From Octopus vulgaris (Eukaryota), in assembly GCA_951406725.2 (NCBI GenBank), contig OX597833.1, positions 46,810,001 to 46,874,000 on the forward strand: 64,000 bases of DNA, in the 5' to 3' direction. The notes under the pieces are model-generated. The model made no database searches, was not told the origin of the DNA, and saw only the letters and a list, made by a program, of their open reading frames with translations. This document shows, one piece after another, positions 10,006 to 56,159 of this stretch; position 1 is the first letter of the stretch; the number at the start of each line of letters is the position of its first letter. Made by a program: the position numbers and the translations under genes.

Positions 10006-10049
<44 letters not shown>

Positions 10050-10130
10050 CGAGACAAAACCACTATTTTAAAACCAAACAAGGAAAGACTTAATCAAAAC
10101 ATAAAATTTTAATATAAATTAAATAAACCG

Positions 10131-10173
10131 CCACTACAAATGTTTCATGTCTGCTCCGACAATCTTCAGGTGG
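10131..10173 (-). ncRNA. Minimal type I hammerhead ribozyme motif (mirror copy)
   Basis: Exact reverse complement of 10217-10259. Confidence 0.72.
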
Positions 10174-10216
10174 ATTTTCGATCTTCTAATTTGATACTGA
10201 TTAGAAGATCGAAAAT

Positions 10217-10259
10217 CCACCTGAAGATTGTCGGAGCAGACATGAAACATTTGTAGTGG
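10217..10259 (+). ncRNA. Minimal type I hammerhead ribozyme motif
   Basis: CCAC-CUGAAGA-u-UGUC(ggagca)GACA-u-GAAAC-auuu-GUA-GUGG: stem I CCAC/GUGG, canonical core, stem II, very short stem III, GUA cleavage triplet. Confidence 0.75.
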
Positions 10260-10433
10260 TGTTTATTTAATTTATATTAAAATTTTATGTATTGATTAAG
10301 TCTTTCCTTGTTTGGTTTTAAAATAGTGGTTTTGTCTCGAATTATATTATATAATATTTTACTATAAAATTGGATTTAACCCTAAATCTGATTTTTCCCT
10401 GTAATTTTGGATTCATTCCCTAATAATTATTAT

Positions 10434-10480
<47 letters not shown>

Positions 10481-10508
10481 AAAAAGGAGATGTAGAACAC
10501 GAGTTGTG

Positions 10509-10800
10509 ATATATAAAAAAAGGAAATGAAGAAAATGCTGACAAAATAATTTAAGTAAGGGAGAGTGTATTTAATTAGGTGAAAGTTCTTTTTACCGGTT
10601 GCGCATTTGTTATGCTTATCAAAAGATATTTTTTTAAGAGAGAAATATCTATCAGAAAGGAACTCTATCTCTCTTAAAAAAATATCTTTTGATAAGCATA
10701 ACAAATGCGCAACCGGTAAAAAGAACTTTCACCTAATTAAATACACTCTCCCTTACTTAAATTATTTTGTCAGCATTTTCTTCATTTCCTTTTTATATAT
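10509..10800. repeat. Second near-perfect palindrome (~133-bp arms, 24-nt loop)
   Basis: 10509-10643 is the reverse complement of 10668-10800. The ORF track shows the same peptide on both strands. Adjacent to (TA)n tracts. Confidence 0.93.
10686..10723 (+). ncRNA. Variant hammerhead-like motif (U3-A8 core, GCAA in place of GAAA); mirror copy at 10588-10625
   Basis: cuu-UUGAUAA-GCAU(aacaa)AUGC-GCAA-CCGGU-A-aaaag, with palindromic ACCGGU at stem III. Stem I is weak. Confidence 0.4.
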
Positions 10801-10828
10801 ATATATATATATATATACATACACACAT

Positions 10829-11184
10829 AAGGGAATCTTACATTGCTTAGAAACTCTATATTTGGAAGGACTCATATTAAACTCTGTTGGACTTTTGGAT
10901 TTTACTCAAAGGAAATTGAAATATTGCATATATACCATTATGCCTACAAAACGGATTTTACGAATTCAATACCCATACATATCTTACATCTATTTTCTTT
11001 CCTCCACCTCACTCTCTATTTTGTATCACATCGAAACTAACTATGACTTAATTTTTCCTCTCACACCGTCTCCGATGAAGGGATATTATTAATTAATATC
11101 CTAGAAACAGCTGTAAGGCTTTCTATCTATAAATGCTCTAATATCTATAAAGCCTTGGTTATTTATCTTATTGCGCAAAAAATT

Positions 11185-11190
<6 letters not shown>
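10829..11190 (+). mobile_element. Penelope-like element 3'/pseudo-LTR fragment between (TA)n tracts
   Basis: Unique AT-rich block bounded by (TA)n on both sides and containing a hammerhead motif. Confidence 0.55.
11068..11119 (+). ncRNA. Minimal hammerhead ribozyme motif, U4C core variant
   Basis: GUCU-CCGAUGA-ag-GGAUAUUA(uuaau)UAAUAUCC-ua-GAAAC-AGCU-GUA-AGGC, with palindromic ACAGCUGU at stem III. Confidence 0.62.
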
Positions 11191-11225
<35 letters not shown>

Positions 11226-11227
<2 letters not shown>

Positions 11228-52589: not shown

Positions 52590-52880
52590 CATCGTGACTG
52601 ACCAGGCTATCAGATGTTGCTACACATCGCTGGTCACAATGCACTTCACATTGTTTTAGCCTTCAAATGACGCTAAGCGAGCAGGCCAACAGAAGAAAGA
52701 GTGAGAGAAAGTTGTGGCGAAAGAGTACAGCAGGGATCGCCACCACCCCCTGCCGGAGCCTCGTGGAGTTTTAGGTGTTTTCACTCAATAAACACTCACA
52801 ACGCCCAGTCTGGGAATCGAAACCGCGATCCTATGACCGCGAGTCTGCTGCCCTAACCACTGGGCCATTGCGCCTTCACA
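52590..52880 (-). mobile_element. SINE family D
   Basis: Near-identical to 30655-30962. Flanked by (TA)n. Confidence 0.88.
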
Positions 52881-53102
52881 CACATATATATATATATATA
52901 TATATAATATCAGTCTAACAATAATAATAATAATGGTTTCAAATTTTGCCAAAAGGGCAACAATTTGTGGGGAGGGGATGAGTCAATTACACTGACCCCA
53001 GTGTTCAACTGGTACTTATTTTATCGACCTTGAAAGGATGAAGGGAAAATCAACCTCAGAGGAATTTGAACTCCACCTTATAAATAATAATAATAATAAT
53101 AA

Positions 53103-53534
53103 TTCATTCTTTTTATTGGCCACAAGGGCTGACAAATATGATTGGAAAACATAAAGGGACAAAACAGGACGAAAGGTTACAAAAGATTTCGTCCGTTTGT
53201 GAAAAAAACGAGTAAAAAGCAGTTTAACAATCAAAATTTTTAACAACGAAAAGCTCCCAATAGAGGAGACGCTTCGAAAAAAGAAAAGGTTTCACGTGGA
53301 ATAAAAGCCACGGGAGCCTGGTCAAAAGGGGGGTAGAGAGCCCCTTTCTCCTTTTATAATACCTTTTTCAGTTACAGGCGAAATCTGAGAATTAGTCCAT
53401 TTATACTGGCCATTCTTGCACAATTCACCCACCTTTCAGAAAACTTGCTATCAGATAGCACTCTCCTCTCTAACCTCATCTTCCTTTTCAAGTGAAACTT
53501 GAAAAAGTTGATGAGGCCTTGACCAAAGAGGAAA

Positions 53535-53535
<1 letters not shown>
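53103..53535 (-). mobile_element. 3' end of an L1/Tx1-type LINE inserted in (AAT)n
   Basis: 53533-53372 translates without internal stops as FLFGQGLINFFKFHLKRKMRLERRVLSDSKFSERWVNCARMASINGLILRFRL*, resembling Tx1-clade ORF2 C-termini. The 3' UTR ends cagcccttgtggccaataaaaagaatgaa. Confidence 0.68.
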
Positions 53536-53577
<42 letters not shown>

Positions 53578-53578
<1 letters not shown>

Positions 53579-53945
53579 TGGTACAGGTAAAATATATCCC
53601 TGTAGTTATAGGTGTATTAGGAACTATCCTTAACCCTTTAGTATTCAGACCATTCTGTCAAATGTAATATTTATTTATTCATATTGTTCCCAATTAATCA
53701 AGCATTATTTTGTTATTTCAAGGCTTTGATGATGTCATTGTTTATTTTGAGAATGACATTGTAGGATAGATGAGAGAGGCCAGAACTGGTAAGTTTGAAC
53801 ATAAAACAGGTAGAAGTATTTGACCGGATATAGCTGGTTTAAATGCTAAATGGATAGGAAAAAAAGGGGCATAAAACCTAGTTTAGCGCAGCTCCAGAAA
53901 ACAGTGTTATTAGGAACAGCTAGGATACTTAGGAAGATATCCATA
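53578..53945 (+). mobile_element. Old Dong/R4 endonuclease fragment split by a piggyBac-type MITE (53634-53853)
   Basis: VQVKYIPVVIGVLGTI | MITE | GIKPSLAQLQKTVLLGTARILRKI: the characteristic PVVIG.LG...LQK..LLGTARILRK motif. Confidence 0.85.
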
Positions 53946-55026
53946 AGCCACTGACAAAGCCTGTACATAGTCACAACACACTAGAAATAGCAGCCTCATA
54001 TCTCCCTCAGATCACCCCCCCCCTATCTGATGTCTTGACCTTTTTTACCTTCATCACTATAATGGCCTCTGCTCCTTGGAGCTGGCTGGAGGATAGGGGT
54101 CCATATTACAACTACTCAGACATTTATAATCCATCTTCTCTTCTCACAACTCCTCTTGTATTCAACTATCCAGGTCCTACACTAACCACCATGAACATTA
54201 TGCCTGGTCCTTTCTTCTTAAAATATAAGCCTCTGGAACTTCTACCCCCTACACACACACACCTGTTCGTATCACTCTTGCAGGTGTTAATTTGCAATGT
54301 TTCAAGAAGAATGCTAATGGCATCAATCCCTCTCGTCTCAAAGAGCCTCAAAAAGTCATGAGGCATTGCTCCCTTACCCGCCAGATCAACTAAGAGAAAA
54401 ACAAAAAAAAATATTGGATAACGTGGTACTGTTGTAGGTTTAAACCAGTGCTCCACAATTGGCATGCCATGGCACACTAGTGTGCCACAAGATGATGCTA
54501 GGTGTGTTGCCTAGCAACCTGAATGCTCTTACTCTCTTTTTACTCTTTTACTTGTTTCTGTCATTTGACTGCGCCCATTTCGCTTTATTTCGCATTACTC
54601 CTGTCCACTCAGCCGGCAAAAATTAGTTGTGCCTGTATATTCAAAAGGCCAGCCTTGTCACATTCTGTGGCATGCTGAGTCTCCCAGAGAACTGTGTTAA
54701 GTGTATGTGTACCCGTGAAGTTTTCAACCACTTGCACATAATTTCATGAGCAGGCTGTTTAGTTTATCAAATTAACTGGAACTTTTATTGTTATAACCAA
54801 CAGCCATGTATACAATATAGATTGTTAACAGAATGGATGAAGTAGACAAGCAGCTACAATGGAATGACAGGACTGGATTTATCATAGCTTTGTGACACAT
54901 CTCTCCCTTTGAAATGCAAGGTTGATGTCATGGAGAACACCTGCCCAAGGTGCCTTGCAGTGGGACTGAACCTCAAACCATGTGACTAGAAAGCAAACTT
55001 CCTACCACACAACTACACGTCATATA

Positions 55027-55243
55027 CGAGAGGGTACTGGAAAGTTCCCGGTTGTGGGTAAAAGAAAATACAGGAGGATCAGTCACTTATGATTTCATTT
55101 AACATATTCCCCTCTCAGATTCACGCACTTATTGCTGTGGTCCTTCAGTTTTTCTAAGCCCTGTATAAGAACTTGAAATTTTGGGCCTCCAACTAAGCCG
55201 TTTGCAATACTTTTAAAGCCAAGAACTTTTCAGCACCTCCTTG
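55027..55243. mobile_element. Mariner-type MITE
   Basis: TA|cgagagggtactggaaagttc...gaacttttcagcacctccttg|TA. Confidence 0.8.
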
Positions 55244-55264
55244 TATATGTATGTATATGTATAT

Positions 55265-55455
55265 GTGACCGCGTGTGTACCGTTGGTGATTTTTTCCTCT
55301 GTCTTCCCTTCTCTGGATCTTTCCTTCTCCTATGTTTCCGACGAAGAGCTCCGCTCGAAACATTAAACCCTCCTTCTTTCCGGAGCGTCCAATAATACTA
55401 TATTTGTTCCATGTCCTCGCGTTGTTGTGCTTTTTTTGTGTGCTTTCATGTTTGG
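55265..55455 (+). mobile_element. Hammerhead-bearing Penelope-like non-coding element; 3' part re-duplicated at ~55541-55620
   Basis: Homologous to 46481-46693. tccaataatactatatttgttcc...tttggattaactttatatat is present twice. Confidence 0.75.
55334..55368 (+). ncRNA. Minimal hammerhead motif, probably inactivated
   Basis: GUUU-CCGACGA-a-GAGC(ucc)GCUC-GAAAC-AUU-AAAC. It has U4C and a G-to-A change at the stem III CpG relative to 46588-46622. Confidence 0.55.
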
Positions 55456-55493
55456 ATTAACTTTATATATATGTATGTATGTATGTAAGTATG

Positions 55494-55526
<33 letters not shown>

Positions 55527-56159
55527 TGAGGGAATATTATTCCAATAATACTATATTTGTTCCACATCCTCGCGTTGTTGTGTTTTTTTTGTGTGCTTTC
55601 ATGTTTGGATTAACTTTATATATATGTATGCATGTATGTATGTATATAATAATAATAAAAGGTGTTTTTTTCTCATTTGTGCGTGTGTGTGTATATGCAG
55701 GTGGCATGTAAAAGCACCCATTACACTCTCAGAGTGGTTGGCATTAGGAAGGGCAACCAGTCATAGAAAACCATGCTACATTAGATTGGTGTCTGGTGCA
55801 GCCTTCTGGCATGCCAGCCTGCTCAAACCATCCAACCCATGACAGCATGGAAAATGAACGTTTGATGATAATGATGATGATATATATATGATGTCTGTCT
55901 GCAATACTGTGTCAGACTGATTGCATATTTCTGATGTGAATATAAACTACAATAACAGAGTATGTGAGTATGAAATGGGAGACGAAGGCCAAGAGAAACA
56001 TAAGAGAGAGGGGGAGGAGAGCGGAAAAGAAAGAGGAGGAAAAGAGAGAAATGGAGGAAAAAACAGGTGAATGAGAGAGGAACAAAGAAAAGAAAGAAAT
56101 GGAACAAGGAGAGAAGGGAGGAGGAGAGTGCAAAGGAGGAAGACAGAGAGACAGAATGG

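Follow-up and report, generated by a model that had tools for sequence, protein, structure and literature searches.

Minimal hammerhead motifs beside (TA)n tracts in an Octopus vulgaris contig are probably truncated ends of Penelope-like elements

A 64,000-nt stretch of Octopus vulgaris contig OX597833.1 (the window) holds nine short blocks in which a hammerhead ribozyme motif, intact or decayed, is found, most of them touching a (TA)n tract. An earlier note on this DNA read them as several families of non-autonomous, retrozyme-like elements. Are they such elements, or the ends of something already known?

Results

The hammerhead motifs are real. With thresholds that were fixed after the first scan's output was known, and with one match being a mirror copy, a strict descriptor scan of the window returned three matches against a shuffle mean of 0.017 (0/60 shuffles reach two), a scan allowing at most one core mismatch returned five against 0.4 (0/60 reach four), and the loosest setting returned seven against 2.7, a count reached by one of 60 shuffles. 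The earlier note had staked its proposal on such an excess over shuffled controls, and the excess is clear. A loose-setting scan gave 14 matches, nine of which fall beyond the blocks and look coincidental. The sites listed in that note are all present at their stated positions, but the six motifs it called recognisable differ in state: two have an intact core, two carry one core change and two are damaged.

The intact cores are in blocks A and F. Block A (10046–10345) is an inverted pair with its 3' ends outward and hammerhead C3 at 10169 (minus) and 10221 (plus). Its plus-strand motif (10217–10259) has a predicted cut after 10255, a U-U mismatch at the base of stem II and stem III ACA-UU-UGU, and stems I–III form in a dimer fold prediction. 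Block F (46482–46693, minus; motif at 46588, C3 at 46618) has stem III ACGU, and its 5' end adjoins a truncated SINE-like repeat. Single core changes are found in block C (10820–11186, plus; hammerhead 11068–11119, C3 at 11072), with C at position 4 and stem III ACAGCUGU, and in block E (13212–13383, plus; hammerhead 13257–13292), with A6U and stem III ACGU. The damaged motifs, recovered by neither the strict nor the one-mismatch scan, belong to block B (10478–10793; motif at 10686, U3 at 10689, plus), an inverted pair in which both arms share a U3-A8 swap, A13C and a stem I with 2 bp in register, and to block G (55266–55463, plus; motif at 55334, C3 at 55339), which has C at position 4 and a C-A mismatch in stem III.

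What is left at the decayed sites is either a half-core or a broken motif. Block H (6690–7030, minus) has a first half-core at 6820–6814; block D (12558–12926, plus) has a motif at 12780–12814 with G5 missing and stem III broken, and a lone first half-core at 12838–12844; block Dm (12927–13095, minus; C3 at 13040) carries a decayed relative of the motif of block E. A bulged base precedes stem II in C, E, G and Dm. In four related copies 36 of 40 cells are paired, against 15–53% when the alignment is slid; 39 of 500 shuffles reach the same count, so covariation itself is not significant. Rfam returned no hammerhead: the one match of one search was rRNA, and the other had none among the 150 matches listed of 175. 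These are nonetheless minimal type I hammerheads with palindromic stem III, placed in a terminal repeat, the PLE (Penelope-like element) kind that the earlier note had recognised. Most motifs are decayed, cleavage would likely be poor and dimer-dependent, and the copies are likely dead.

The nine blocks form six to seven sequence groups. Among 36 block pairs only E–Dm, F–G, E–G and, marginally, E–F rise above shuffles, and block H is related to none of the remaining blocks. At least four unrelated contexts and several families, as first claimed, therefore hold, whereas a window-wide spread was overstated, since seven of the nine blocks lie within 6690–13383. F and G are identical at 164 of 217 columns (~76%) and have start and end motifs in common; E and Dm start at nearly the same position. 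An alignment profile of E, Dm, F and G found one further copy, a partial, hammerhead-free tandem repeat of G's 3' portion (55541–55658, plus; 93% over 122 nt).

The most regular feature is the distance from the core to the end. In seven of the nine blocks a TA tract starts 105–137 nt downstream of C3, in keeping with the fixed 3' end ~110–145 nt past the hammerhead, joined to AT-rich or (TA)n DNA, that is expected of endonuclease-bearing PLEs: 115 nt in C, 123 in E, 125 in G, 137 in F and, in H, 131 nt from the half-core to a tract ending at 6689. The contact is polar, on the 3' side of the core. All four independent elements found by the scans fall in this range, where chance would place 3.2% of positions, or 12.6% of positions within 400 nt of TA, for a 95–140-nt band that was chosen after seeing the data. 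TA contact occurs in 7/40 control repeat copies and 19.6% of random 200-nt blocks. The claim of TA contact does not extend to D, whose 3' end lacks TA, or to Dm, whose end, ~113 nt from C3, adjoins block D.

The arms of block A are identical at 157 of 160 ungapped columns and are parted by a 9-nt spacer near 10191–10199; those of block B agree at 151 of 155. The window has three long palindromic self-matches, each of them a hammerhead block. An inverted, 5'-truncated copy joined at the 5' end is thus found in A and B, and strand-switch joints are found in the family of block C. Block B also has an extension of 31–38 nt on its left arm only (about 10478–10515), which gives a 30–40-nt tail at one end in one of the two near-perfect inverted pairs.

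High copy number was demonstrated for one family, that of block C, with 3,853–4,737 contigs per DNA run, 48–52 of which run over the ends of the block C stretch. At core position 4, most family records read C. Loose ends gather at 11164, and some contigs continue upstream past 10820; F and G, in contrast, have a common 5' end. Six of the nine joints listed switch strand. None is a head-to-tail joint of the unit, although contigs can miss these.

No reverse transcriptase (RT) or GIY-YIG match was found in 513 of the 664 window frames of at least 45 aa. A 90-codon frame upstream of C, examined as a possible endonuclease C-terminus, was rejected, as it has no relatives and shows no codon-position bias in 15 family variants; a frame from F has no homologue. 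With these results no block can be tied to an autonomous PLE. Short-motif searches gave no match in viral and prokaryote collections and none to plasmids, and two metagenome matches were set aside as chance: one is a 25-nt stretch identical to block E that lies within a long ORF on an unrelated contig with 52% GC, the other falls in a 68%-GC contig. The suggestion that sense copies in introns could cleave pre-mRNA gained no support, since the 513 of 664 frames hold no gene domain and Cervera and de la Peña 2014 (PMC4209133) report no detectable in vitro cleavage by single minimal hammerheads.

Discussion

The blocks are probably 5'-truncated ends, or pseudo-LTR pieces, of several endonuclease-bearing Penelope-like families, and are likely to be ordinary PLE ends, not an element of a new kind. 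Truncation at the 5' end, an adjacent inverted copy and a one-sided 30–40-bp tail are published PLE hallmarks (PMC8557442), and the core-to-TA distance agrees with the internal RT start of a lizard element. In Anolis carolinensis, the ORF of Poseidon begins at stem II and reverse transcription starts 111–118 nt into it (Frangieh et al. 2024, PMC11167929), which we calculate as about 118–126 nt from C3; the DNA nicked is AT-rich, both strands are extended and the RNA template is uncleaved. The window elements share with it an insertion 3' end ~120 nt past the core, an AT-rich target and the optional 30–40-nt tail, and would also share extension of both strands and an uncleaved template. No ORF start like that of Poseidon is recognised in the window, and the likeness drawn here is one of anatomy.

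By analogy with this biochemistry, a PLE protein encoded elsewhere would nick AT-rich (TA)n DNA and start reverse transcription internally, ~110–140 nt past the hammerhead, on uncleaved RNA. An early stop would retain the last 150–400 nt alone. Inverted pairs could arise by priming on both strands or by fold-back, and the tail from a second RT start site. The lack of an RT or GIY-YIG match in the frames scanned would be expected of truncated ends.

Comparison with hammerheads of metazoan pseudo-LTRs points the same way. PMC4209133 regards single minimal hammerheads as probable truncated PLEs and reports opposite-strand pairs 100–700 bp apart, the U3-A8 swap and the bulged base before stem II. 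The window has opposite-strand pairs, the swap and the bulge in common with it, along with type I topology, a 4-bp stem I, a palindromic or loopless stem III, mostly single motifs and many families per genome. It differs in that an ORF-linked copy was not found here, and the C4 variant of family C was not seen among the hammerheads consulted there. Dimer cleavage of PLE hammerheads is attributed to Lunse et al. in PMC6765202. Dispersed minimal hammerheads left by truncated PLEs are already known by the thousand from animal genomes, and the main value of the finding thus lies in repeat annotation; for these particular families no describing paper was found in the open-licence literature.

Some facts speak against truncated PLE ends. 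The frames scanned gave no RT or GIY-YIG match, TA is missing from the 3' ends of D and Dm, and F and G keep the same two ends at ~76% identity, which random truncation does not predict. The earlier note had set truncated ends of annotated autonomous PLEs against its own proposal; the anatomy comes close to such copies but does not fully amount to them, as none of the blocks could be linked to an autonomous PLE and F coincides with G at either end. Some families (F/G, E/Dm) could instead be fixed-length non-autonomous elements of ~170–210 nt, solo pseudo-LTRs or SINE-like PLE derivatives, self-transcribed and copied in trans by PLE protein. The shared ends of F and G, the nearly coincident starts of E and Dm and the lack of an ORF remnant in the frames scanned would fit, as would a summed contig depth in family C that is ~3–6 times higher at 10976–11157 than at 10833–10962 in three DNA runs. 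However, contig depth is no guide to the relative abundance of parts within a stretch, and this step is partly an alignment break, because loose ends before 10957 consist of upstream sequence that belongs to the family itself. Each family has only two copies here, the sequence preceding the core differs widely in length among A, B, C, D and H, from about 25 to 250 nt, and an autonomous transcript copied back to its start could also fix a 5' end. We consider fixed-length elements unlikely.

On balance we prefer truncated PLE ends, and what is useful here is that unrelated families keep a constant hammerhead-to-end distance. This regularity would carry a finding made in vitro on a single lizard element further, and it gives an inexpensive way to examine genome-wide how copies of PLEs begin and end. 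As a tentative extension, in which we have low confidence, the hammerhead may act as a ruler in at least five unrelated families: the PLE protein would start reverse transcription ~120 nt downstream, a start at the 5' copy of the site would yield fixed-length solo pseudo-LTRs, some of them now independent TA-targeting SINE-like families, and the perfect palindromes would be twin-primed products of a dimeric PLE complex.

Amplification as non-LTR retrozymes, through hammerhead-cut circular RNAs, is improbable. There is a loose fit in size range and in the type I hammerheads, the blocks and retrozymes alike being short, non-coding and of probable PLE origin, and bioRxiv 10.64898/2026.07.22.740005 includes dispersed monomers in the retrozymes that it traces to PLE pseudo-LTRs. 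Yet retrozymes are defined by hammerhead-bearing tandem units and circular RNAs (PMC7229834; bioRxiv 10.64898/2026.07.22.740005), and coral retrozymes carry canonical type I motifs that PMC7229834 keeps apart from the minimal PLE variants seen here. The window has no hammerhead-bearing tandem unit, its sole duplication lacks the motif, and the nine listed family C joints show none. These are not retrozymes as so defined, and "retrozyme-like" finds no support in what looks like truncated PLE copies.

A chance origin of the motifs in DNA rich in AT and in repeats, with TA contact reflecting microsatellite density, is very hard to credit: the stray loose-setting matches, the 25-nt metagenome identity and decayed sites that cannot be validated singly allow for it, but the motif excess, TA distance and TA contact exceed their controls, as does pairing when set against slid alignments. 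A chance origin is refuted for A, C, E and F, though not for D and H.

Neptune and Naiad PLEs (PMC8557442) share with the window a bias towards microsatellites, truncation, inverted copies and tails, and the supplement of that paper places octopus Naiads at (TA)n. Naiads, which have an N-terminal GIY-YIG, lack canonical hammerheads, whereas A, C, E and F carry full cores. Ten of eleven short window motifs are absent from that supplement, and the eleventh (9 nt) occurs at two unrelated-looking places. By eye, the split half-cores of block D resemble the end of Naiad_Obim.

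Hammerhead motifs exceed chance expectation

Seven of the nine hammerhead blocks lie within 6690-13383, six of these inside 3.4 kb: H (6690..7030, minus strand), A (10046..10345), B (10478..10793), C (10820..11186, plus), D (12558..12926, plus), Dm (12927..13095, minus) and E (13212..13383, plus). With F (46482..46693, minus) and G (55266..55463, plus), the distribution is a local pile-up and two distant copies rather than the window-wide guild proposed in an earlier note. When the 36 block pairs were compared against shuffles, only E-Dm, F-G and E-G aligned better, and E-F marginally; the nine blocks therefore form six to seven groups, in agreement with the at least four unrelated contexts that had been claimed.

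The window was scanned with a type I descriptor written from the hammerhead consensus. With thresholds set only after a first look at the data, the strict setting (unaltered core, stems I and II each at least 4 bp long, loop III no longer than 2 nt) returned three sites, 10221 (plus), its mirror 10169 (minus) and 46618 (minus), against a mean of 0.017 over 60 local dinucleotide shuffles, none of which reached two. Allowing one core mismatch added 11072 and 13261 (both plus), giving five sites against a shuffle mean of 0.4, with 0/60 reaching four. The excess fades at the loosest setting (7 versus 2.7; 1/60 shuffles). The hammerhead motifs are real, and their frequency stands above that in the dinucleotide-shuffled controls. 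Among six motifs previously called recognisable, those at 10217, 11068, 13257 and 46588 are recovered, but 10686 and 55334 are missed by both scans because each has at least two defects.

Aligning E, Dm, F and G leaves 36 of 40 stem cells paired, compared with 15-53% when partners are slid. In two of the pairs both partners differ, a covariation signal that falls short of significance (39/500 shuffles). Dimer folds predicted for A and C take a three-stem form with an inter-strand stem III; that of B does too, but out of core register, and those of E, F and G gave no three-stem form. An Rfam search of the window had no hammerhead among the matches listed. Separately, 25 nt identical to the stem II-III region of block E's hammerhead, at positions 127-151 of a 52%-GC metagenome contig and inside a long ORF, were taken as chance.

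Blocks meet TA tracts with one polarity

TA contact of the hammerhead blocks is polar. From core position 3 (C3/U3), the next TA tract lies downstream by 123 nt in the left arm of A, 105 nt in the right arm of B, 115 nt in C, 123 nt in E, 137 nt in F, 125 nt in G and 131 nt in H. The right arm of A has the same end base as the left, inside a short interrupted TA run. As background, a next TA tract 95-140 nt downstream, a band picked after the fact, occurs at 3.2% of window positions and at 12.6% of those within 400 nt of one. Four control repeat families contact TA in 7/40 copies, and random blocks are similar (19.6%). That each block touches (TA)n applies to seven blocks but not to D and Dm, whose 3' ends abut each other.

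A direct duplication of 141 nt (11225-11364 and 11459-11599, 99% identity) begins immediately after a TA tract; it has no hammerhead and no further copy in the window.

The blocks as probable ends of Penelope-like elements

Both A and B consist of two inverted copies whose 3' ends point outward, their arms identical in 157/160 and 151/155 columns, respectively, and the left arm of B has 31-38 additional bases ahead of TA. Each of the three long palindromic self-matches in the window corresponds to a hammerhead block. Behind G, its 3' part is partially repeated (55541..55658) without the motif.

We consider it probable that several Penelope-like families targeting TA left the blocks behind as truncated ends, and the blocks are best read as adding members to this known kind. 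PMC4209133 places minimal hammerheads in the terminal repeats of Penelope-like elements (PLEs), regards most genomic motifs as single and probably truncated PLEs, describes opposite-strand motif pairs 100-700 bp apart and a U3-A8 variant, and reports that a single motif did not cleave and that dimers cleaved at a low level; PMC6765202 summarises dimer cleavage. As PLE features, PMC8557442 lists truncation at the 5' end, copies in inverted orientation, a tail of 30-40 bp on one side only and a bias to microsatellites, which for octopus Naiads means (TA)n. In PMC11167929, initiation is internal, 111-118 nt into an ORF whose start is at stem II; AT-rich DNA is nicked, both strands are extended and the RNA used is uncleaved. 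That initiation distance matches the core-to-end distance of the window blocks, and the whole hammerhead plus upstream sequence in every window copy fits an uncleaved template. Penelope is abundant in coleoid genomes according to PMC8967140, in passages that leave ribozymes unmentioned.

In block D (12780-12844), a second half-core is followed by a new first half-core about 25 nt on; by eye, this order looks like that at the 3' end of Naiad_Obim (PMC8557442 supplement).

Non-autonomous derivatives of Penelope-like families are a possible though rather unlikely origin. F and G have both ends in common at ~76% identity, so that a non-autonomous family of fixed length stays a candidate, but an autonomous transcript copied back to its own start would yield the same shared ends. 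Retrozymes, as suggested earlier, are improbable: PMC7229834 and bioRxiv 10.64898/2026.07.22.740005 define them by tandem units, and the window contains no tandem of hammerhead-bearing units. Chance motif matches are the least credible source, at three strict sites versus 0.017.

Family C is present at high copy

Block C belongs to a high-copy family, as the earlier note had anticipated. It is present in 20/24 runs listed, at 30-51% of sampled words (10 studies, four organism labels), and in three DNA or likely-DNA runs 4,737, 3,853 and 3,969 distinct contigs match it at 82% likeness, contig numbers not being copy number. Summed depth is 1e5-1e6, versus 15-100 for single listed contigs. Family records mostly have C at core position 4 (window 11073), a variant also in block G, with T in 2-12%; the single wobble position of stem I has a Watson-Crick partner in at least 93%. 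Loose ends concentrate at 11164, and in each DNA run 48-52 contigs extend beyond the block C stretch. A strand switch occurs at six of nine joints listed, four of them near 11052. Relative to the upstream part, the last 190 nt show a summed depth ~3-6x higher; this step carries little weight, since alignments are broken by an indel at 10957.

Coding content and other repeats

GC content is 31-47% across the window, and microsatellites and interspersed repeats are dense. Of 664 stop-to-stop frames of at least 45 aa, the 513 remaining after exclusion of 151 low-complexity ones gave no Pfam family at curated threshold. No PLE protein linked to any of the nine blocks was found within the window, and an open frame upstream of block C has neither relatives nor codon bias. 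In translation, a SINE-like repeat neighbouring the blocks matches a hypothetical protein of Argonauta hians at 78% identity (E 3.5e-9), which makes an octopod source likely. At 59136-59985 (minus) lies a decayed, interrupted eukaryotic SSU rRNA fragment (54.4 bits), probably the remnant of an old rDNA pseudogene into which ~200 nt were inserted. Another repeat family has 15 copies or more (15866-16673, 24924-25459 and others), some of which lie in tandem and are joined to (AAT)n, not TA, and a tandem array with a period of ~88-97 nt occupies 39376-40508.
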